Shown here: in pieces, positions 1-9,043 of the stretch
Layout: every line of letters begins with the position of its first letter
Numbering within the stretch: position 1 is the stretch's first letter
From: a virus
Virus genome (UHGV): UHGV-0115898
Length of the DNA: 40,790 nucleotides
Reading direction: 5' to 3' (one strand)
The notes under the pieces: generated by a model
Database searches by the model: none
Told to the model about the DNA's origin: nothing
Seen by the model: the letters and a program-made list of their open reading frames with translations, nothing else
Made by a program: the position numbers and the translations under genes

Positions 1-52
1 TTATCAATTTGTTGCAACGAACAGGTCACTATCAGTCAAAATAAAATCATTA
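1..52. promoter_or_regulatory. Fragment of lambda-type attachment site P-prime arm with tandem Int arm-type binding motifs (aggtcactat / cagtcaaaat / aaaatcatta); core not in window
   Basis: Sequence immediately 3' of int carries three tandem copies of the arm-type consensus (C/A)AGTCACTAT; recognised as lambda attP P' arm from memory; the overlap-region core is not present. Confidence 0.5.
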
Positions 53-1120
53 TTTGATTTCAATTTTGTCCCACTCCCTGCCTCTGTCATCACGATACTG
101 TGATGCCATGGTGTCCGACTTATGCCCGAGAAGATGTTGAGCAAATTTATCGCTTATCTGCTTCTCATAGAGTCTTGCAGACAAACTGCGCAACTCGTGA
201 AAGGTAGGCGGATCCCCTTCGAAGGAAAGACCTGATGCTTTTCGTGCGCGCATAAAATACCTTGATACTGTGCCGGATGAAAGCGGTTCACGACGAGTAG
301 ATGCAATTATGGTTTCTCCGCCAAGAATCTCTTTGCATTTATCAAGTGTTTCCTTCATTGATATCCCAAGAGCATCAACATGCAATGTTGTTGGGATGGC
401 AATTTTTACGCCTGTTTTGCTTTGCTCGACATAAAGATATCCATCTACGATATCAGACCACTTCATTTCGCATAAATCACCAACTCGCTGCCCGGTAACA
501 ACAGCCAGTTCCATTGCAAGTCTGAGCCAACATGGTGATGATTCTGCTGCTTGATAAATTTTCAGGTATTCATCAGCCGTAAGTCTTGATCTCCTTACCT
601 CTGATTTTGCTGCGCGAGTGGCGGTGACCGGGTTTGTTGTTATATGGCCTTCAGCTATAGCCTCTCGGAATGCATCGCTCAGTGTTGATCTGATTAACTT
701 GGCTGACGCAGCCTTGCCCTCGTCTATGTATCCATTGAGCATTGCCGCAATTTCTTTTGTGGTGATGTCTTCAAGTGGAGCATCAGGCAGCCCCCTCCTT
801 ATTGCTTTAATTTTGCTCATGTAATTTATGAGTGTCTTTTGCTTGATTCCTCTGCTGGTGAGGATTTTTTCGTAGCGATCAAGCCATGAATGTAACGTAA
901 CTGAATTATCACTGTTAATCCTCGCTGTCAGAGGCTTGTGTTTGTGTCCTGAAAATAACTCAATGTTGGCCTGTATAGCTTCAGTGATTGCGATTCGCCT
1001 GTCTCGGCCTAATCCAAACTCTTTACCCGTCCTTGGGTCCCTGTAGCAGTAATATCCATTGTTTCTTATATAAAGGTTAGGGGGTAAATCCCGGCGCTCA
1101 TGACTTCGCCTTCTTCCCAT
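50..1120 (-). CDS. int: Tyrosine site-specific integrase, lambda Int type (356 aa)
   Basis: ORF translation MGRRRSHERRDLPPNLYIRNNGYYCYRDPRTGKEF... with C-terminal catalytic region (HELRSL...LLGH...Y) matches lambda Int along its length; ATG start confirmed at 1118-1120. Confidence 0.97.
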   Translation of the reverse strand: MGRRRSHERRDLPPNLYIRNNGYYCYRDPRTGKEFGLGRDRRIAITEAIQANIELFSGHKHKPLTARINSDNSVTLHSWLDRYEKILTSRGIKQKTLINYMSKIKAIRRGLPDAPLEDITTKEIAAMLNGYIDEGKAASAKLIRSTLSDAFREAIAEGHITTNPVTATRAAKSEVRRSRLTADEYLKIYQAAESSPCWLRLAMELAVVTGQRVGDLCEMKWSDIVDGYLYVEQSKTGVKIAIPTTLHVDALGISMKETLDKCKEILGGETIIASTRREPLSSGTVSRYFMRARKASGLSFEGDPPTFHELRSLSARLYEKQISDKFAQHLLGHKSDTMASQYRDDRGREWDKIEIK

Positions 1121-1316
1121 TTCTGATCCTCTTCAAAAGGCTACCTGTTACTGGTCGATTTAAGTCAACCTTTACCGCTGATTCGTGGAACAGATACTCT
1201 CTTCCATCCTTAACCGGAGGAGGGAATATCCTGCATTCGCGCACCCATCGACGAACTGTTTCAAGGCTTCTTGGGCGTCGCTGGCGTGCGTTCCACTCCT
1301 GAAGTGTCAAGTACAT
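1098..1316 (-). CDS. xis: Excisionase Xis (72 aa), overlapping int start as in lambda
   Basis: Translation MYLTLQEWNARQRRPRSLETVRRWVRECRIFPPPVKDGREYLFHESAVKVDLNRP... matches lambda Xis; 23-nt overlap with int. Confidence 0.95.
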   Translation of the reverse strand: MYLTLQEWNARQRRPRSLETVRRWVRECRIFPPPVKDGREYLFHESAVKVDLNRPVTGSLLKRIRNGKKAKS

Positions 1317-1340
1317 CGCAAAGTCTCCGCAATTACACGC

Positions 1341-1368
1341 AAGAAAAAAACCGCCATCAGGCGGCTTG
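1341..1368 (-). terminator. Putative intrinsic terminator on minus strand between the early-left accessory genes and xis
   Basis: Minus strand reads GCCGCC-TGAT-GGCGG hairpin followed by TTTTTTTT (plus strand aaaaaaaccgccatcaggcggc). Confidence 0.5.
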
Positions 1369-1624
1369 GTGTTCTTTCAGTTCTTCAATTCGAATATTGG
1401 TTACGTCTGCATGCGCTATCTGCGCCCATATCATCCAGTGGTTATAGCAGTCGTTGATGTCCTCTGCTTCGATAACTCTGTTGAATGGTTCTCCATTCCA
1501 TTCACCTGTGACTCGGAAGTGCATTTATCATCTCCATAAAACAAAACTCGCCGTAGCGAGTTCAGATAAAAGAAATCCCCGCGAGTGCGAGGATTGTTAT
1601 TCACCTTTGACGGCAAGTTGCAGG

Positions 1625-1927
1625 TTAGCCATGGTTAACCTCCTGCGGAGTAGCCTTTACAAGCACTGGTGTAAATCCATCTTCATTAAGGTTATGAATA
1701 TAGACTTCCGTTCTCCTGCGCTCTTCAGCGTTTAATATGGTTTCTGGATCATAAACCCATACTTTCATTCGACTATTCCATGAAGAAATCGCTTCAGATT
1801 TAGTTCGTTTTTCTGGTCCTTGGGCACCACATTTGCATGACACATAGCGCATTTTCCCTCTGATACTGAATGAGTATCCGATGTTAAGCACAGTGGAACC
1901 ACAGAATGGGCAGCGATATAGATTCAT
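1625..1927 (-). CDS. Lar-family zinc-ribbon restriction-alleviation protein (100 aa)
   Basis: CPFCG...CKCG cysteine pairs in a small basic protein; resembles Lar/restriction-alleviation family from memory; ATG at 1925-1927. Confidence 0.55.
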   Translation of the reverse strand: MNLYRCPFCGSTVLNIGYSFSIRGKMRYVSCKCGAQGPEKRTKSEAISSWNSRMKVWVYDPETILNAEERRRTEVYIHNLNEDGFTPVLVKATPQEVNHG

Positions 1928-2520
1928 AAATCATCCACCTTAGGCGCAGCTGAGACAGCAACATTCCAGAACTCAGAAAACATATTGTATGCACCAGATA
2001 GATTGGAAGTGGCATACCCTCCAAGCTCACTTCTAATCTGAACGGCTCTCATCATTTCCGGGGTTAACTCCTTCGGCACCATAACCCAACCATCCGGAAT
2101 TACCGGAGAGTTGCCGGGTTCTTTAATGTGCAAGCGAGGCTCACCATCTTTTGGCTCAGGCCACTGGCGCTCCATGTTGATCTTCAATTTATCTTCCATA
2201 GCAGCGGTAATTTCAGCATCGCTGATGCCAGCACGGCGCTGTGCATCCCACAACAGAAACTGCATATCAGCCCACTCGCTAAGATCGTCTGGTTCGGCTG
2301 CGGCTTCCAGTGCCTCTTTTGAGAGATGTTTCAGCGGACCAATGGGGCCAACGCAGCCAAATGTGGAGTCAGACCATTTGGCATGCTCGTGGCGAATCTG
2401 TTCGCGTTGCAGCGATGCCAGAGCAATTCGTGCCAGTTCCATTTGTTCGCCACGGGTAAGTCCGTTTTCAAGCGGATTTTTAATGAACAATTCAATACGT
2501 TCTTTGGTAATAGTGGTCAT
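1924..2520 (-). CDS. Phage DUF550/DUF551-type protein (putative dATP/dGTP pyrophosphohydrolase), 198 aa
   Basis: Motif block DLSEWADMQFLLWDAQRRAGISDAEI...KLKINMERQWPEPKDG resembles the MazG-like DUF550 fold; C-terminal VIPDGWVMVPKELTPEMM resembles DUF551; ATGA overlap with downstream gene. Confidence 0.5.
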   Translation of the reverse strand: MTTITKERIELFIKNPLENGLTRGEQMELARIALASLQREQIRHEHAKWSDSTFGCVGPIGPLKHLSKEALEAAAEPDDLSEWADMQFLLWDAQRRAGISDAEITAAMEDKLKINMERQWPEPKDGEPRLHIKEPGNSPVIPDGWVMVPKELTPEMMRAVQIRSELGGYATSNLSGAYNMFSEFWNVAVSAAPKVDDL

Positions 2521-2530
2521 GTGTTACTCC

Positions 2531-2794
2531 TTAACCCGCAGTGCTTTCAACTGATGAGGAGAACAAAATCTTTTCATCAAACCCTGCATTCATATCATGA
2601 ACAGCAACACACCAATCCATCGACGAACGATTATCAAGAGCCTCCATGATTTCATCCATGCGGCGCAGGTCATACAGGTAAATGCTTTTATCGCCAATGG
2701 TGTAAAAACCAATTTTTTTCGGTGACGGGCAGCGATCAAGAACGTTCTGTAATTCGCTCAACCATGCCTGTTCCTTTTTTGTCAAAGTTGCCAT
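2531..2794 (-). CDS. Hypothetical early-left protein (about 87 aa from ATG at 2794; ORF-track start at 2824 is TTG)
   Basis: ORF in operon orientation; ATG at 2792-2794 lies 1 nt after the upstream gene stop. Confidence 0.45.
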   Translation of the reverse strand: MATLTKKEQAWLSELQNVLDRCPSPKKIGFYTIGDKSIYLYDLRRMDEIMEALDNRSSMDWCVAVHDMNAGFDEKILFSSSVESTAG

Positions 2795-2795
2795 A

Positions 2796-3488
2796 TCACT
2801 CTCCTTTGATGCGAATGCCAGCAAGCCAGTTTCTTATGCCGATATATTCAGCGTTCCTGAAACCGCTTTTTACATATATAAATGGCAAGCGAAGATTGTG
2901 ACCATTGGCTGCCAGGTAGTATTTACAACCCTGTTCGGTGAAACAGCAGGTAACGAATTCATCAATATCTTTCACAGCAACGCGCCGCCATTTTTCTGGT
3001 GGCTCTCGAAAGTTTTCGTGAAGTAGTTCGAGACGACGACTTTGGCGTTTATTGGCTTCATTACCATCTTCATCAACCCAGACAATCCGGTCATAGTCAT
3101 AATCAGCATCAACAACGATTTCGCGCTTTTGATACACACAAAACATAGGGTCTGACGTTATTCGATTATCCTGTGTTCGAATATTTTCACCGATGATGCC
3201 AAACGAATCTGGTGCAGCTTTTTTCTCCAGCTCTGCAATGCGTTTGCTTTGAGCTTCCAGTTCATCAAGAAGCGCAAGCACGGTAGCCGGATTAGCCTTG
3301 GCAACAAAATCCCGGACTGACTTACAATCAATCTCCGCAATGGGTTGATACGATGTGTAGCCATGCTGTCTTGTATAACTACCGTGACGAATAACGAAAA
3401 AATCACCATTTATTTTTTTAGCCTGCCACTTATCTTCACCGGCTTTCTCTGCCGCTTCACGCAGTGCCTGATAATCAATCTTGCTCAC
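2796..3488 (-). CDS. Hypothetical phage protein, Ead/Ea22-like (230 aa), GTG start with AGGAGG Shine-Dalgarno
   Basis: Long ORF; start codon is GTG at 3486-3488 preceded by AGGAGGCAACCA on the minus strand; central coiled-coil-like AQSKRIAELEKKA. Confidence 0.55.
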   Translation of the reverse strand: MSKIDYQALREAAEKAGEDKWQAKKINGDFFVIRHGSYTRQHGYTSYQPIAEIDCKSVRDFVAKANPATVLALLDELEAQSKRIAELEKKAAPDSFGIIGENIRTQDNRITSDPMFCVYQKREIVVDADYDYDRIVWVDEDGNEANKRQSRRLELLHENFREPPEKWRRVAVKDIDEFVTCCFTEQGCKYYLAANGHNLRLPFIYVKSGFRNAEYIGIRNWLAGIRIKGE

Positions 3489-3729
3489 TGGTTGCCTCCT
3501 GCTTTTCTGCCTTCAACACCATGCGAGAACCATCATCCAGCTCCCACACTATCTCACCACCTTCAGCCATGACCAGTTGCCACACCAATTGAGCAGCCTC
3601 ATTGGTAACATCACGACCTGGATCATTGCCAACGCGCATACGTCCACCTTCAACATCGCGCATTTTTGCCAGCATGATAGTTTTTGATAGCGGTGAAAAA
3701 CCAAGCTGTAGTCGTGCTGAATTACTCAC
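3475..3729 (-). CDS. Hypothetical small protein (84 aa), GTG start with identical AGGAGGCAACCA leader
   Basis: ORF with GTGA overlap to upstream gene stop; the same 17-nt start module as the gene at 3488. Confidence 0.45.
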   Translation of the reverse strand: MSNSARLQLGFSPLSKTIMLAKMRDVEGGRMRVGNDPGRDVTNEAAQLVWQLVMAEGGEIVWELDDGSRMVLKAEKQEATSEQD

Positions 3730-4226
3730 TGGTTGCCTCCTTTGCGAAGCTGGTCGGCGAACAAACGTACACCAGACGCTTCACTGCGTAGTAACTTAAC
3801 GGCATCATCAAAACCACCTCGTTCTGCGTCGTCTGCTCCGTTGTCGAGGTTATCTGCGTACATCTCTACCCCCTGCGCCCGTACTTCAGCCAGGAAAGCA
3901 TCGGTGGCTGGGGTGTCTGATTGCAGAGACTTTGCGCGATAGTCATTCCACCCTCTTGCATACATGGGATTAACTTGCACTCCATCTTTTACGCAATATG
4001 CCTGCCCTCCACGGTTGATAACCTTGATTTCGCCCATAGCGCCAGACTTCAGCCCCGCATTCTCCGCTGCCAGCGCCGCGCACTTAGCCTCCGCTTCAGC
4101 AAATTTACGCACCAGATATTCAGCGTTTGTTTCGTTAACCTTTAAATCTCGGGGGATGCATTTACCTTTCAGGAATCCATCCATCTCAATTAGTGACATT
4201 TGTTTCATTTCTTCCCACTCCGCCAC
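3726..4226 (-). CDS. Hypothetical early-left protein (166 aa; start ambiguous between GTG at 4226 and ATG at 4208)
   Basis: ORF in operon orientation; acidic C-terminal half; no recognisable domain. Confidence 0.5.
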
Positions 4227-4365
4227 ATTGCATTCAGATATTTGTTGTCATTAACAGAGCCGAAACTATTTCTCTTAAGCAATTCCTCTCTCGATGGCAT
4301 TGGCTTTACGCGTTGGCGAATAATCATTTCTGCCGGAAGAATGCCGGGATTGTATGCAAGTCCTC

Positions 4366-4689
4366 TCATGATTTACTCTCAACGAACTGGTCAATAGCCA
4401 TGCTAAGTGACATACCTAAAGTTTCGATATGCTGCTGAATATCCTGTAGCGTCTGCGCCTGAGATAACAGGATTTCACGGTTGCATAATTCTTTAACCAG
4501 ATGCTCAAACTTGCTGTAATAACCGATACGGCTTAGTGTTTCTTTCCCTGCATTCTCGCCTTCTTTGATAATTCCTCTTTCACTAAGAATCAGATCGTGT
4601 TTGGTTCCGGTAATAACGTATTTTCCGAGGTCGATGTTTAGCTTCATTGTTTTCATGGTAAATTCCTCAGTCATTACTGATAGCGCCAT
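4366..4689 (-). CDS. Hypothetical protein (107 aa)
   Basis: ORF with ATG at 4687-4689, overlapping the upstream gene end by 23 nt. Confidence 0.5.
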
Positions 4690-4963
4690 AGCGTGAGCGG
4701 TAATTACGCAGGCGCGGGTCGATATATTCAGGGAAGTGGGTATATGTGGCTTTGCGGAATGGTCGGATTGATGTTTCGTTTATTCGGTCTTTTTCCTGTT
4801 TTTCTGCGAGTTGTATATCGCGTCGGCACTTCCGTTCTTCTTTTGTTTCTGGTGGCAGAGCAAGAAACGCGTCGAGATTATTCTTGATATTTTCCAGCAC
4901 CTCCGATACGGAATTGCCGGAACAGCGGCGCGGGTCATCCGCACCATACAGAGGCGCTGGCAT
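4667..4963 (-). CDS. Hypothetical basic protein (98 aa)
   Basis: ATG at 4961-4963 preceded by AGGAG at 6-nt spacing on the minus strand. Confidence 0.5.
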   Translation of the reverse strand: MPAPLYGADDPRRCSGNSVSEVLENIKNNLDAFLALPPETKEERKCRRDIQLAEKQEKDRINETSIRPFRKATYTHFPEYIDPRLRNYRSRYGAISND

Positions 4964-4979
4964 GGTTTTCTCCTGTTGA

Positions 4980-5528
4980 TTATTTAGCTAACTTTTTCCA
5001 GATCGCTGAAACGTATTTGGCTTGGTGAATGGCATCATCAAGCGCGTTGTGGCGAGTTCCTTTGAATGGCATATCTCGCTTAGGGTCGAATCCTATTACC
5101 TTCCCAAGTTCGACGATTGTTCTTACGTCGCGGTCATTCCACCACTGCCACGGAACTGGCTGCCCTGTCAGCGAATAACTGTTTCGGAGAATAACGCAGT
5201 CAAATGATGCTCCATTCCCCCAAACCTGAACGAATTTGTGGTTAGCGTTCTTTATGATGAATTCAGATAACCATGAAAGAGCCGTTGAAAGCTCCTGAGT
5301 GTTGCTGGTTAGCGATTTTCTGGCTTCTTCACTCTGTTCCAGCCACCATAAAATCGTTGAAGCGTCAGGACGCGCTCGATATCGCATTGATGATTCAAGC
5401 GAGATATTTACCGAGAACTCTTCTCCTGTTTCTCCGGTATTCGGGTCAAAGAATACCGACCCAATAGAAATAACTGGCGCGTATGGCCCGTTGCCCATTG
5501 TTTCAAGGTCAACCATCAAGTGATTCAT
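4980..5528 (-). CDS. DnaQ-like (DEDDh) 3'-5' exonuclease (182 aa)
   Basis: Exo I motif MVDLETMG near the N-terminus and Exo III motif HNALDDA near the C-terminus; size typical of phage stand-alone proofreading-type exonucleases. Confidence 0.8.
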   Translation of the reverse strand: MNHLMVDLETMGNGPYAPVISIGSVFFDPNTGETGEEFSVNISLESSMRYRARPDASTILWWLEQSEEARKSLTSNTQELSTALSWLSEFIIKNANHKFVQVWGNGASFDCVILRNSYSLTGQPVPWQWWNDRDVRTIVELGKVIGFDPKRDMPFKGTRHNALDDAIHQAKYVSAIWKKLAK

Positions 5529-5536
5529 GTAAGTCC

Positions 5537-6052
5537 TTAAATTGCGTGAATAGCGTGACGAGGGAAGGGGAGAGTTACTGGTGCAAAGGGGATATCGTCG
5601 TCAAAATCCATAGGTGGTTCGCTGTGATTTCCCTGCTGCTGAGGTTGCTGTCTTTGTTGCTGACCATTATTTCGCTGAGGTGAAGACTGTTCATTGCCTC
5701 CTTGCTTGCCACCAAGCATTTGCATGGTTCCACCAACGCCCACGATGACTTCGGTAGTGAACCGATCCTGTCCGCTTTGATCCTGCCATTTTCTTGTCCG
5801 CAATTTGCCTTCAAGATAAACCTCAGATCCTTTTCGCAGATATTCGCTGGCAATTTCTGCCAGTTTCCCGCTCATTACCACGCGGTGCCACTCCGTCTGC
5901 TCCTTTTGCTCTCCAGTTTTCTTATCACGCCATTGTTCTGACGTAGCAACGGTAAGGTTTGCAAATGCCGTTCCTGATGGTGAATATCTGATTTCTGGAT
6001 CATGCCCAAGGCGACCAATAATGATCACCTTATTTACGCCTCTGCTTGCCAT
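5537..6052 (-). CDS. ssb: Single-stranded DNA-binding protein (171 aa) with Gly/Gln-rich linker and DFDDDIPF acidic tip followed by a 15-aa extension
   Basis: OB-fold N-terminus [23 protein letters not shown]..., [10 protein letters not shown] linker, [11 protein letters not shown] motif; ORF continues [15 protein letters not shown] before the stop at 5537-5539. Confidence 0.9.
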
Positions 6053-6760
6053 TTATGCCGCCTGTTTTAGCTCGTTAACTCTGATGTTCATTACCTGAAC
6101 GCATTTAGCCTGCGCCTCCTCGTTTCCAGCCATTAATTGCCAGTCATGCTGATAACGCTCGATGAGTTTTTTCTTGTCAGTTTCTGTCGCTGCATAATCG
6201 CTGAAGTCTTTCAGGATTTGTTCGCAGTCAACCGATGGAGATTTCTGGTTGGTATTTTCTGGTGATGGTTTGTTATCTGATGCTGGGATTGCCCATCCCG
6301 GCAGCGATGGAGGGGACCAGTAAAATCCTGTTCCATCCTTCAGTTTTGCCCTGTGCCATCCCTGCTTTTTATCGAGAGATGTTTGTGCGAAACCTTCCTC
6401 AAGGTTATACAGATACCGACCGATTCCCCATTGAACGGCAGCGCGCTTCATTGCGCCGGAACGACCACCTTTGACTGCTTCTACCTGCGTGTTTTCAGCA
6501 GCATCCCATTTGGTTACCCATTCGGAATCAATCTTTATTGATATGCCGCATTCAACGCCGCCGTTGTTGGGAATATCGCGGTATTCATTGCGCCATCCTG
6601 CTTTGCCGCAAACATCGTCCAGGCGTTTCATGATTGCCCGGTTCGTGACATAAGCCAGCACCATAGCCCACACTTTGCCATCGCGTGTTTTACCGCTTTG
6701 CTGTATTCGCCATTCGATATCTTCAGGGCTGAATGGCTCATCGAATTTGTTCAAATCCAT
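6053..6760 (-). CDS. Single-strand annealing recombinase: Rad52-like N-terminal domain fused to a P22 Erf-like C-terminal tail (235 aa)
   Basis: C-terminus ...AATETDKKKLIERYQHDWQLMAGNEEAQAKCVQVMNIRVNELKQAA matches the P22 Erf C-terminus from memory; N-terminal ~150 aa (EWRIQQ...LAYVTNRAIMKRLDDVCGKAGW) looks Rad52/Sak-like, not Erf-like. Confidence 0.75.
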   Translation of the reverse strand: MDLNKFDEPFSPEDIEWRIQQSGKTRDGKVWAMVLAYVTNRAIMKRLDDVCGKAGWRNEYRDIPNNGGVECGISIKIDSEWVTKWDAAENTQVEAVKGGRSGAMKRAAVQWGIGRYLYNLEEGFAQTSLDKKQGWHRAKLKDGTGFYWSPPSLPGWAIPASDNKPSPENTNQKSPSVDCEQILKDFSDYAATETDKKKLIERYQHDWQLMAGNEEAQAKCVQVMNIRVNELKQAA

Positions 6761-6847
6761 AATTCACCTCAGAATGGACATGGCCCAAGGAAATAACGCT
6801 GATTTAATACTTCAGTCTTTGCCGCATTCAAAAATACGCGAACACCT

Positions 6848-7018
6848 TCACGATCTCCCTTCTGGCGATACATTAACGCCTGCTGCGTGTACATGCGCCT
6901 CTGTAACTTGCTCTCCTTCACTGTGGTTGCAAGTGACATGAATATCTCCTTCGTTACCGATTAATTCTTTCATCTGACGAATGAATTCTTCGTCTGACCA
7001 GTTATCTGTAAAACTCAT
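6848..7018 (-). CDS. Hypothetical small acidic protein (56 aa from ATG at 7018) in the position of kil
   Basis: ATG at 7016-7018 forms an ATGA overlap with the cIII stop; ORF-track start at 7048 is TTG. Confidence 0.4.
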   Translation of the reverse strand: MSFTDNWSDEEFIRQMKELIGNEGDIHVTCNHSEGEQVTEAHVHAAGVNVSPEGRS

Positions 7019-7185
7019 GGACGGCCTTGTTGTTTCAAAATATCCCAAAGCTTTTCGAGCAAACTTTTCATTCTTGGTTGTTTAAAGTCTGCTCCGGTTA
7101 AAATGTTTTTTCGTGAATGCTGTACCGATAAAATCGGGTTGAAAGGGCGAACCGATGCCGCCCCTGCAATAGCGAACTGTTGCAT
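7015..7185 (-). CDS. cIII: CIII-like protease (FtsH) inhibitor, 56 aa
   Basis: Internal ATG at 7183-7185 with AAGGAG at 7-nt spacing; MQQFAIAG...LLEKLWDILKQQG resembles lambda CIII; lies left of N as in lambda. Confidence 0.7.
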   Translation of the reverse strand: MQQFAIAGAASVRPFNPILSVQHSRKNILTGADFKQPRMKSLLEKLWDILKQQGRP

Positions 7186-7249
7186 AGGATGCTCCTTCTG
7201 TTTGATTGCACAACGAAAACGCCTCGAATGAAGCGTTATTGGTATGCAT

Positions 7250-7276
7250 ATAAAAAGGCCCTCACACTGGAGGGCA
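7250..7276 (-). terminator. Putative intrinsic terminator (tL-like) on minus strand
   Basis: Minus strand GCCCTC-cagtgt-GAGGGC hairpin followed by CTTTTTAT. Confidence 0.45.
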
Positions 7277-7391
7277 AAGAAGATTTCCAATAATCAGAAC
7301 AAGTCGGCTCCTGTTTAGTTACGAGCGACATTGCTCCGTGTATTCACTCGTTGGAATGAATACACAGTGCTGTGTTTATTCTGTTGTTTAT

Positions 7392-7419
7392 GCCAAAAAT
7401 AAAGGCCGACTATGCGGCC
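7392..7419 (-). terminator. Putative intrinsic terminator directly after the 60-aa gene (minus strand)
   Basis: Minus strand GGCCGCATAGTCGGCC hairpin followed by TTTATTTTTGG, beginning 1 nt after the stop at 7420. Confidence 0.45.
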
Positions 7420-7602
7420 TCAGAATGGTTTGTATCCATGTTTAAAGGCGAAATCGTATGCCTCATCCTTAGTGCTGAAGTATTCATAATCAGCAAATCC
7501 ATCACGATAAAACTTGCAGCACCAATGAGGCGGAATGCCATCCTCAGGACCATAGTCTTGATGGAACACATCCTCAACGATGATATTTTCATCTTTTCCC
7601 AT
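7420..7602 (-). CDS. Hypothetical small protein (60 aa) immediately downstream of N
   Basis: ATG at 7600-7602 preceded by GAGGTG on the minus strand; aromatic/acidic composition; in the sieB/ral position of lambdoid phages but no recognisable similarity. Confidence 0.5.
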   Translation of the reverse strand: MGKDENIIVEDVFHQDYGPEDGIPPHWCCKFYRDGFADYEYFSTKDEAYDFAFKHGYKPF

Positions 7603-7610
7603 ATATCACC

Positions 7611-7937
7611 TCAAATAAGTGGTTTGCTGCCTAATTTCATTTTCTGGCGACCAACACAAGTCACACCCATTTCACTGCGTGGCTTGCTGTACCATGTGCG
7701 CTGATTCTTGCGCTCAATACGTTGCAGGTTGCTTTCAATCTGTTCGTGGTATTCAGCCAGCACCGTAAGGTCTATCGGATTCAGTGCGCTTTCTACTCGT
7801 GATTTCGGTTTGCGATTCAGCGAGAGAATAGGGCGGTTAACTGGCTTTGCGCTTACCCCAACCAACAGGGGATTTGCTGCTTTCCATTGAGCCTGTTTCT
7901 CTGCGCGACGTTCGCGGCGGCGTGTTTGTGCATCCAT
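7611..7937 (-). CDS. N: Antiterminator N (108 aa)
   Basis: MDAQTRRRERRAEKQAQWKAANPLLVGVSAKPVNRPILSLNRKPKSRVESALNPIDLTVLAEYH... matches lambda N including the arginine-rich motif; ORF-track extension to 8027 uses an upstream TTG. Confidence 0.92.
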   Translation of the reverse strand: MDAQTRRRERRAEKQAQWKAANPLLVGVSAKPVNRPILSLNRKPKSRVESALNPIDLTVLAEYHEQIESNLQRIERKNQRTWYSKPRSEMGVTCVGRQKMKLGSKPLI

Positions 7938-8047
7938 CTGGATTCTCCTGTCAGTTAGCTTTGAGTAACGCGCCGTGATGCTTATCTCCACGGTTGCTGT
8001 CTTGCAGCTGCATTTCGCGCTACTCAAAGCCTTCTGCTTTGAATGCT

Positions 8048-8078
8048 GCCCTTCTTCAGGGCTTAATTTTTAAGAGCG
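8048..8078 (-). promoter_or_regulatory. nutL site (boxA CGCTCTTA and boxB GCCCTGAAGAAGGGC on minus strand)
   Basis: Reverse complement of 8071-8078 is CGCTCTTA; reverse complement of 8048-8062 is GCCCTGAAGAAGGGC; located between pL and N. Confidence 0.85.
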
Positions 8079-8109
8079 TCACCTTCATGGTGGTTAGTGC
8101 GTCCTGCTG

Positions 8110-8150
8110 ATGGCTAAATAGTACGATTTGTACTTTATCGAGTCAATACA
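8110..8150 (-). promoter_or_regulatory. pL-type early leftward promoter with overlapping operator palindrome AGTACgatttGTACT
   Basis: Minus strand TTGACT - 17 nt - TACTAT; 15-bp palindrome at 8120-8134 lies over the spacer and -10. Confidence 0.55.
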
Positions 8151-8207
8151 AAATGTTCTAAATATAATTAGTTTTTTATAACACTTTGTATTTAATGGGT
8201 TTATATT

Positions 8208-8240
8208 TTGGAAAAAGAAAACCCGACGCTAAGGTCGGGT
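8208..8240 (-). terminator. Putative intrinsic terminator downstream of cI
   Basis: Minus strand ACCCGACC-ttagc-GTCGGGT hairpin followed by TTTCTTTTTCC, about 30 bp after the cI stop; lambda has rexA/rexB here. Confidence 0.5.
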
Positions 8241-8271
8241 TATTGTTGTGTGTTTTAGAGTTGTGAGGCTG

Positions 8272-8931
8272 TTAACTAAATGTCTCTTCAGGCCACTGGC
8301 TGGCGATAACTTTCCCTACTACGGAACAGCTATCATTGCATGGAATCATTGGATATTGCGGGTTTAGTGGCTGTAGGAACACCTGACCGCTATCCCTGAT
8401 CAGTTTCTTGAAGGTAAACTCGTCACCACCAAGTCTGGCTATGCAGAAATCACCTGGCTCAACAGCCTGCTCAGGGTCAACGAGAATTAACATCCCGTCA
8501 GGAAAGCTTGGCTTGGATCCTGTTGGCGCGGTCATGGAATTACCTTCAACTTCAAGCCAAAAAGCACAATCACTGGCTTTTTTGGTTGTGCTGACCCATC
8601 TCTCCGCATCACCTTTGGTAAAGGTTCTAAGCTCAGGCGAGAACATCCCGGCCTGAACATGAGAAAAAACAGGGTACTCATATTGTTTTTTAACGGGGGC
8701 AGATGAGTATTCGCCAACAGGTGAAAATGTACCGTCGTGGTTGAATGAGACGTTATCAATACCAAGGTATTTAAACACCACACCAATCTCGTCAAGAGAT
8801 GGATGACGAGATCCGCGCAACCAGTGACCAATTCCACCCTGCGTCATACCAAGCTCTTCAGCTAACTTCTCTTGAGTTATGCCGAGCTCTTTCATTCTGG
8901 ATCTAGCCAGTTCATACCATTTCATTTTCAT
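8272..8931 (-). CDS. cI: CI-type immunity repressor: lambda-like LexA/S24 C-terminal domain, non-lambda N-terminal HTH domain (about 219 aa from ATG at 8931; alternative ATG at 8925)
   Basis: C-terminal ~140 aa ([38 protein letters not shown]...[14 protein letters not shown]...FTFKKL...) matches lambda CI including the Ala-Gly cleavage site and Ser/Lys dyad; N-terminal ~80 aa differ. Confidence 0.88.
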
Positions 8932-9043
8932 ACCCTTATTATTACGCTCTGTACTAAAACCATCCATGCACAAGATGTATTTTTTTGTTTGCATTCTAAA
9001 AGTACATATCGTATTATTGTTTCATGGTTACTATGGAGGGCAT
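8932..9043. promoter_or_regulatory. Divergent cI-cro control region (oR-type operators, pR candidate TTGCAT-17-TATTAT, pRM region)
   Basis: Operator-like half-site pairs at 8941-8955 (atTACgctctGTACT) and 9001-9015 (AGTACatatcGTAtt) resemble the oL palindrome; -35 at 8989-8994 and -10 at 9012-9017 upstream of cro. Confidence 0.5.

Follow-up and report, generated by a model that had tools for sequence, protein, structure and literature searches.

The virus genome UHGV-0115898 was analysed as one stretch of 40,790 nucleotides (nt), here called the window, and we describe in it a 17-nt sequence that occurs twice, at consecutive gene junctions on the minus strand. Three genes meet at these junctions. 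The first is an open reading frame (ORF) of 166 amino acids (aa) when read from a GTG (3726..4226), which resembles hkaH of phage HK620 and ends in ..LRKGGNQ. It is followed by a DUF7446 gene of 84 aa (3475..3729; PF24233, E=6e-19) and by an Ead/Ea22-like gene of 230 aa (2796..3488; PF13935, E=5e-19), in which an Ead_Ea22 N-terminal domain is combined with a different C-terminal domain (phrog_3205). The DUF7446 gene forms a single-gene cassette between the two copies of the sequence. The repeat, CTCACTGGTTGCCTCCT on the plus strand, is exact and occupies 3484-3500 (copy B) and 3725-3741 (copy A). The initial annotation had recognized this exact pair, with coordinates that were each one base too low. 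In a repeat search the pair grows to 20 nt (3481-3500 and 3722-3741; 19/20 identical), with a spacing of 241 nt. Read on the minus strand, the 17-mer is AGGAGGCAACCAGTGAG, that is, the Shine-Dalgarno sequence AGGAGG, a 6-nt spacer CAACCA, a GTG start codon and a final AG, and we refer to it as the module. The whole window contains no match to CTCACTGGTTGCCTCCT beyond the two exact copies, on either strand and at up to three mismatches. Two strong ribosome-binding sites might resemble each other by chance, and the Shine-Dalgarno sequence together with the start codon explains about nine of the 17 positions. However, dinucleotide-preserving shuffles, searched at up to three mismatches, gave a chance expectation of 0.08 matches and no two-copy outcome in 100 trials, and the same 17-mer is found in hundreds of related phages. 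The probability of a mere coincidence is negligible.

Copy A (3725..3741, minus strand) carries the start of the DUF7446 gene. Its GTG at 3729-3727 overlaps the TGA at 3728-3726 that terminates the 166-aa ORF, which results in a 4-nt GTGA overlap. The sequence directly upstream of copy A, GCCGACCAGCTTCGCAA (3742..3758, minus strand), encodes the tail ..ADQLRK of the upstream protein. Copy B (3484..3500, minus strand) likewise carries the GTG at 3488-3486 that opens the Ead/Ea22-like gene, and the reading of both copies as a Shine-Dalgarno sequence plus the GTG start of the 84-aa and the 230-aa gene in the initial annotation was correct. It had further assigned to each copy the stop codon of the gene upstream. 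This holds for copy A, but not for copy B, where DUF7446 does not read the TGA triplet in frame. The DUF7446 ORF crosses copy B in the other frame (QEATSE) and continues to ..KQEATSEQD with its stop at 3477-3475, 10 nt past the Ead/Ea22 start, so that the two genes overlap by 14 nt. Copy B and the head of the Ead/Ea22 gene, its first ~14 codons (SKIDYQALREAAEK.., 3442..3483, minus strand), make up a block of ~59 nt that is common to many loci with differing flanks on both sides. A programmed -1 frameshift that would fuse the upstream protein to Ead, whose frame is the -1 frame of the upstream gene and is open through the module, was considered and set aside, as no X XXY YYZ slippery heptamer was seen by eye at CGC AAA GGA. 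As a side observation on the upstream gene, the 166-aa ORF (GTG 4226) is more likely a protein of 160 aa that starts at the ATG at 4208 and overlaps the DUF2737 stop as ATGA. In many relatives, DUF2737 itself terminates on the module as ..AMWRKGGNQ.

Several observations bear on the use of the two GTG codons. Each is the earliest start codon following the previous in-frame stop of its ORF. The Pfam alignment begins at residue 2 for Ead_Ea22 (profile position 1) and at residue 7 for DUF7446 (profile position 2), and hence no later in-frame start is compatible for either gene. In 118 of 127 complete occurrences, an ORF of 60 aa or more begins at the module GTG, and the sequence directly after the GTG varies codon-wise among related loci (SKIDYQ, SEINYQ, SEVNYQ). 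In related records, both the Prokaryotic Genome Annotation Pipeline (PGAP) and the depositors place the DUF7446 start at the module GTG, where it overlaps DUF2737 by 4 nt. The annotated start of lambda ea22 is a GTG AGC at the homologous position, and the sequence upstream of lambda ea22 differs. Thus, the predicted initiation at both GTG codons is well supported by comparison. One record deserves a comment. In locus L205 (801-1514; E. coli EC19, NZ_CP182182.1), PGAP calls the Ead/Ea22-like gene that follows DUF7446 a pseudogene "missing N-terminus". The called pseudogene reaches 21 nt beyond the GTG. Both the window and phage 683R2 have an intact homologous ORF that is initiated at the GTG. 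The PHROG profiles 14548 (378 aa) and 368 (239 aa) cover both hkaH-like and Ead-like parts, and the pseudogene call probably stems from such fused reference proteins. For annotation this means that GTG starts are supported for the DUF7446 and Ead/Ea22-like genes and that the PGAP pseudogene call is a probable artefact.

The module is widespread among related phages. At least 120 IMG/VR contigs contain the 17-mer without any mismatch. From the flanks of module loci we composed a 64-nt consensus junction block that is not identical to the window sequence, and this block matches 277 phage genomes on deposit. Among them are Escherichia phages, Stx1- and Stx2-converting phages, Salmonella P22-like phages and Shigella phages. 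In HK620, hkaH and hkaG are joined by the module with one mismatch, and DUF7446 is absent there. The recurrence of the module at gene junctions of relatives, on which the initial annotation had placed weight, is borne out. A set with one genome per bacterial species gave 65 matches to the 17-mer, two of them in Escherichia, versus about 69 expected (2 x 596e9 / 4^17). This chance-level count across bacterial species indicates that the element is specific to the lambdoid/P22-like phage group. About 10 of the 65 species-set matches (L286-L350 in our locus numbering) lie in Paraburkholderia or Burkholderia; they probably represent one conserved gene that is unrelated to the phage junction.

We then turn to the sequences that the module joins. 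The flanks of 128 occurrences with full flanking sequence were clustered, using the upstream 68 nt (-80 to -13) at 70% identity and the first 60 nt downstream; these loci were selected by the module and contain the 17-mer by construction. The procedure yielded 31 upstream clusters and 23 downstream clusters in 72 distinct combinations, with 39 sets in which two upstream and two downstream partners occur in all four combinations. Downstream partners are mainly Ead/Ea22 N-termini, but DUF7446, a homologue of the pyrophosphohydrolase-domain gene of the window and ~8 further sequence types are also found. Each inspected occurrence sits at a stop/start gene junction. The cleanest set combines an upstream hkaH-like gene or DUF2737 with a downstream DUF7446 gene or a gene starting SVTVEKIDVL. 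All four combinations occur (copy A of the window, L062, L052 and L088), and the only sequence common to them is the 23-nt block CGCAAAGGAGGCAACCAGTGAGT. Flank identity in this set is 97-100% for concordant pairs and 25-26%, the random level, for discordant pairs. In "empty-site" relatives (L040, L060, L084 and HK620) the hkaH-like gene is directly joined to an Ead gene via a single module. A further arrangement was noted in five loci (L018, L046, L071, L080 and L108), where a 16-codon stub of the Ead N-terminus (VSEINYQELRQVKEKA, followed by a stop) comes after the module. In appearance this stub is a scar left by recombination or the remnant of an Ead gene in decay.

Across clusters, conservation upstream of the module ends at about -17 (consensus GCcGCcCAGCTTCGCAA), and past -20 it does not exceed the background. 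In the extension of copy A (3742-3758), the proximal CGCAA is part of the 23-nt block that is exact in the four combinations, and the remainder fits the graded consensus to about -17. Translation in both frames reveals that most upstream proteins, which are otherwise very different, end in [FILW]A[AED][QE][LI]RKGGNQ directly before the stop. Other upstream genes, DUF7446 included, use another frame, in which the module becomes ..(K/Q)EATSE... Since the 17-mer is read in two frames (KGGNQ plus stop, or QEATSE), its conservation lies at the nucleotide level and not at the peptide level; the 17-mer as the C-terminal peptide of one protein family was rejected on the same ground. The codons of the tail upstream of the 17-mer vary synonymously, and those just upstream look partly constrained by the protein. 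The common upstream tail may reflect either a motif of the protein or a portion of the linker that is older and has diverged, and the shared C-terminal tail peptide may itself be functional.

These data bear on the idea that the 17-mers are an operator for a translational repressor or small RNA acting in trans, or that the conserved element is in truth the C-terminal peptide of the upstream proteins. Identical ribosome-binding regions on consecutive genes would suit an operator of the RegA kind, and the common ending with its synonymously varying codons would suit a peptide. However, no complementary sequence was found elsewhere in the window at up to three mismatches. A search of positions 1-9000 gave no Rfam match at E<=1, and no significant RNA fold was detected in 101-nt segments around each copy (z = -0.23 and -0.62); a structured or riboswitch-like RNA was rejected on these two results. 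In addition, a 3' allele of the DUF7446 junction, CAGGAGGCCGCCCAATGAGC, has one additional spacer base that shifts the DUF7446 stop into an ATGA overlap and changes the tail from QEATSEQD to ..QEAAQ. The two frames and this change of the tail argue that the peptide encoded by the 17-mer is not what is conserved. We therefore regard an operator or a selected peptide as highly unlikely.

Homology breakpoints coincide with the module. Positions 1900-5600 of the window were compared with all collected loci by local BLAST. Alignment ends accumulate at 3500, the upstream edge of copy B (71 ends), at 3746, which is copy A plus CGCAA (44 ends), and at 3442-3457, roughly 14 codons into the Ead gene (~125 ends). 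In the twelve complete E. coli genomes that are listed as best matches, as well as in phage 683R2, the match that starts at 2796 stops at 3746. Most of these records are annotated with Ead, DUF7446 and DUF2737, and it is DUF2737 that precedes the module there. Phage 611R6, in turn, matches from 3722 to 4226. Matches that end at 3746 and a match that begins at 3722 identify the window as a recombinant with its joint inside 3722-3746. Among 5,426 complete E. coli genomes and 50,697 phage records, not one contains 80% or more of 2796-4226 in a single place. The combination of the hkaH-like gene, DUF7446 and the 230-aa Ead variant in the window is thus a rare recombinant arrangement. The position of the breakpoints bears out an expectation of the initial annotation, and its suggestion that the junctions are linker-like and could promote modular exchange or coordinate translation is supported, as far as sequence comparison allows, by the distribution and the breakpoints. 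The DUF2737 gene is a further sharply bounded cassette, with 61 BLAST ends at 4221 and 63 at 4370.

Loci were also collected by protein match instead of by the module, namely 80 loci with DUF7446 and 80 loci with close relatives of the Ead N-terminal domain. Among the DUF7446 loci, the module (at most one mismatch) is located 5' of the gene in 56 of 80 and 3' of it, again, in 56 of 80; both ends carry the exact 17-mer in 32. The remaining DUF7446 loci have diverged junction alleles, such as CGCAAAGGAGCCGTGCTATGAGC, which accompanies a diverged DUF7446 clade. The module is found at 21 of the 80 Ead loci, and the others use different junctions, including that of the lambda type. We had considered that the module is a mere 5' leader of Ead/Ea22 genes; this was rejected given the 21 of 80 Ead loci and the presence of the module before DUF7446 and about nine other types. 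The module is neither obligatory for one gene nor exclusive to it. Counting upstream contexts of Ead junctions gave 11 for the module type in 21 loci, and 1 and 2 for two other types with 22 loci each. The higher partner diversity at module-type junctions is suggestive, with counts that include clonal loci.

The protein-based samples also speak to a purely local origin of the repeat. One small gene between direct repeats 241 nt apart might be the result of a target-site or junction duplication by a mobile DUF7446 element, or of a slipped-strand tandem duplication. However, the sequence between the copies is not duplicated, and DUF7446 is the sole gene there, without terminal inverted repeats, a transposase or an endonuclease; the repeat search of the window detected no inverted repeats at the cassette ends. 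A length of 17 nt exceeds typical target-site duplications. Moreover, the two-copy layout is shared by the 32 DUF7446 loci mentioned above, and junctions without DUF7446 widely carry a single copy. A local event is extremely unlikely.

We consider it probable that the 17-mer is a translational-coupling junction that doubles as a short-homology crossover site, that is, a linker or boundary sequence in the sense of Botstein and Clark. At the level of translation, the module would act as a strong ribosome-binding unit. The upstream ORF ends on this unit (GTGA) or just beyond it, and hence the downstream gene is probably translated by coupling or re-initiation. At the level of DNA, a module that lies between many different gene pairs with reassorting partners would act as a patch of homology. 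This patch, often extended to 23 to ~60 nt by the conserved upstream tail and the Ead N-terminus, might be shared between co-infecting phages and resident prophages. Homologous exchange could then be carried out by single-strand annealing proteins (e.g. the Rad52-like protein encoded here) or by RecA. The Rad52-like annealing protein is encoded in the same operon together with SSB and Abc2 and is a candidate catalyst. Exchange at the module would allow whole genes to be swapped, inserted or deleted with reading frames and expression kept intact. A DUF7446 cassette bracketed by two copies would be an expected product, and recombination between the copies could delete the cassette. For Red-beta, the minimal efficient pairing segment has been put at 23-27 bp, and for RecA at 31-34 bp (PMC3945230). 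By this measure, the 23-nt block just reaches the lower limit and the ~59-nt block exceeds both ranges.

The most serious competing explanation is that the module is a portable ribosome-binding site and nothing else. Joints would arise by illegitimate recombination and be sorted by selection for intact genes (Hendrix model), and the module would have no causal role in exchange. The left edge of homology is usually right at AGGAGG or CAA-AGGAGG, as it should be for a selected functional unit. Further observations point in the same direction and have to be counted against a role of the module as crossover site. Junction alleles and downstream gene clades vary together, so that the module is partly inherited as the ribosome-binding site of the downstream gene. 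The module is not hyper-conserved either; among close DUF7446 relatives it is no more conserved than the adjoining gene. The repeat within the window, with its 17 nt (19/20 over 20 nt), is shorter than the minimal efficient pairing segments, and direct recombination between the two copies would therefore be inefficient. Two further reservations about the crossover role concern the counts. Many upstream partners have the same C-terminal peptide and may be distant homologues. Because of this shared tail, truly unrelated upstream contexts are fewer than the 31 clusters, although inspection of the tails leaves at least about a dozen. IMG/VR and the phage databases are rich in near-clonal prophages, and locus counts are not counts of independent events. 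On the other side, the module precedes Ead/Ea22 and ~10 other downstream types, which argues that it is not the property of one gene. The identical 23-nt block in the four combinations would demand either exchange within the block or four independent but identical joints. Finally, the spacer CAACCA, which is non-functional, is identical throughout. On balance, a portable ribosome-binding site without any role in exchange seems unlikely to us.

A stronger version of the crossover idea can also be formulated. The junction (module plus conserved tail and head, 23-60 nt) might be more than a ribosome-binding site that is shared passively, and be maintained as a portable exchange site. Phage single-strand annealing proteins would then move single accessory-gene cassettes into and out of the exo-xis operon at useful frequency, possibly through excised circles such as a 241-bp DUF7446 circle. 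If this were true, the system would resemble in its behavior a recombinase-independent, integron-like cassette array. We judge this rather improbable.

The interpretation of the module as coupling junction and crossover site has several precedents. Linker sequences belong to the theory of modular phage evolution that goes back to Susskind and Botstein in 1978 and Botstein in 1980. The 2001 work of Clark and colleagues reportedly names seven sequences at the boundaries of multi-gene functional modules. Unlike at those boundaries, what is exchanged here is one small accessory gene inside an operon, and the sequence is at the same time a ribosome-binding site and start codon. The similarities to linkers and boundaries are a short sequence that is conserved amid unrelated flanks, its position between two genes of the metabolic (early) domain and the coincidence with mosaic breakpoints; HK620 itself has the junction with one mismatch. 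The passage of PMC3029335 that cites Clark et al. 2001 on HK620 speaks of "short conserved boundary sequences" of lambdoid phages.

Among systems with experimental support, the PeSL regulatory cassettes of T4-type phages (Arbiol et al. 2010) are functionally the closest. PeSLs are ~100-bp intergenic elements that combine a sigma-70 promoter with a terminator stem-loop, and each cassette is transcriptionally autonomous (PMC2839356). Recombination between PeSL copies was proposed to insert and delete cassettes, and excised circles were shown for T4-type PeSLs (PMC2839356). In both systems, non-essential ORFans of a hyperplastic region are bracketed by conserved expression signals, and a gene with two flanking copies in one phage is replaced by a single copy in a relative. 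However, the element described here is 17-60 nt long, overlaps coding sequence on both sides and would act at the translational level. A PeSL-type cassette was rejected for the window because promoter, terminator and stem-loop are absent at the junctions; between 2700 and 4400, no promoter-like and no terminator-like sites were detected.

The translational side has a parallel in the ninR region of lambda, where Kroger and Hobom in 1982 reportedly described chains of genes that are interlinked and translationally coupled, the stop of one overlapping the start of the next (ATGA/GTGA). As in such chains, the Shine-Dalgarno sequence is situated inside the end of the upstream gene and stop and start overlap by 4 nt, and several junctions of the operon are built likewise. 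In contrast to ordinary coupled junctions, the same sequence is found here between unrelated gene pairs, and the overlap at copy B is 14 nt and not a GTGA. The ea22 genes of lambda and Stx phages are mosaic within the protein (PMC10834534). The Ead/Ea22-like gene of the window fits this picture, with a conserved N-terminal segment plus coiled coil and a swapped C-terminal domain. However, that work concerns mosaicism inside the protein, while the junction described here lies upstream of the gene, and the sequence upstream of lambda ea22 is a different one. A more distant parallel are integron attC cassettes, which are also single promoterless genes bounded by recombination sites in an operon-like array. 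Unlike attC, the module has no integrase-specific site, imperfect inverted repeat or hairpin, and exchange is presumed to be homologous.

Since Botstein's modular theory it has been debated whether mosaicism arises via homologous exchange at boundary sequences or via illegitimate recombination followed by selection. To our knowledge, most mosaic joints have no shared sequence. The mechanism that we favor is ordinary for phage biology and the linker idea is classical and not new, but the module is a clean and testable example, with 17-23 nt common to gene pairs that are otherwise unrelated and that occur in all four combinations. It would account for the shuffling of small accessory genes, such as DUF7446 and Ea22 variants, with their expression kept. 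It also offers a defined and abundant substrate for measuring short-homology exchange in lambdoid phages, next to a Rad52-like annealing protein.

The junctions belong to the exo-xis ("ea") operon, the early-left operon of an enterobacterial prophage of the lambdoid or P22-like kind. All genes of this region are on the minus strand and tightly packed head to tail. Upstream of the junctions are genes for a Rad52/22-family single-strand annealing protein (6053-6760; PF04098, E=5e-26), SSB (5537-6052), an exonuclease-like protein (4980-5528), the anti-RecBCD protein Abc2 (4667-4963) and DUF2737 (4205-4369). Downstream of the Ead/Ea22-like gene follow a dATP/dGTP pyrophosphohydrolase-domain protein (1924-2520), a Lar-like protein (1625-1927), a xis-like protein (1098-1316) and the integrase (50-1120). 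Overlaps of 4 nt (ATGA/GTGA) are present at 4366-4369, 4205-4208, 3726-3729 and 1924-1927. The pyrophosphohydrolase-domain gene has its own junction in the window, TAAGGAGTAACACATG at 2518-2535 on the minus strand. Its homologue in locus L016 has the 17-mer module upstream, and the protein starts with VSAITKERIEL...

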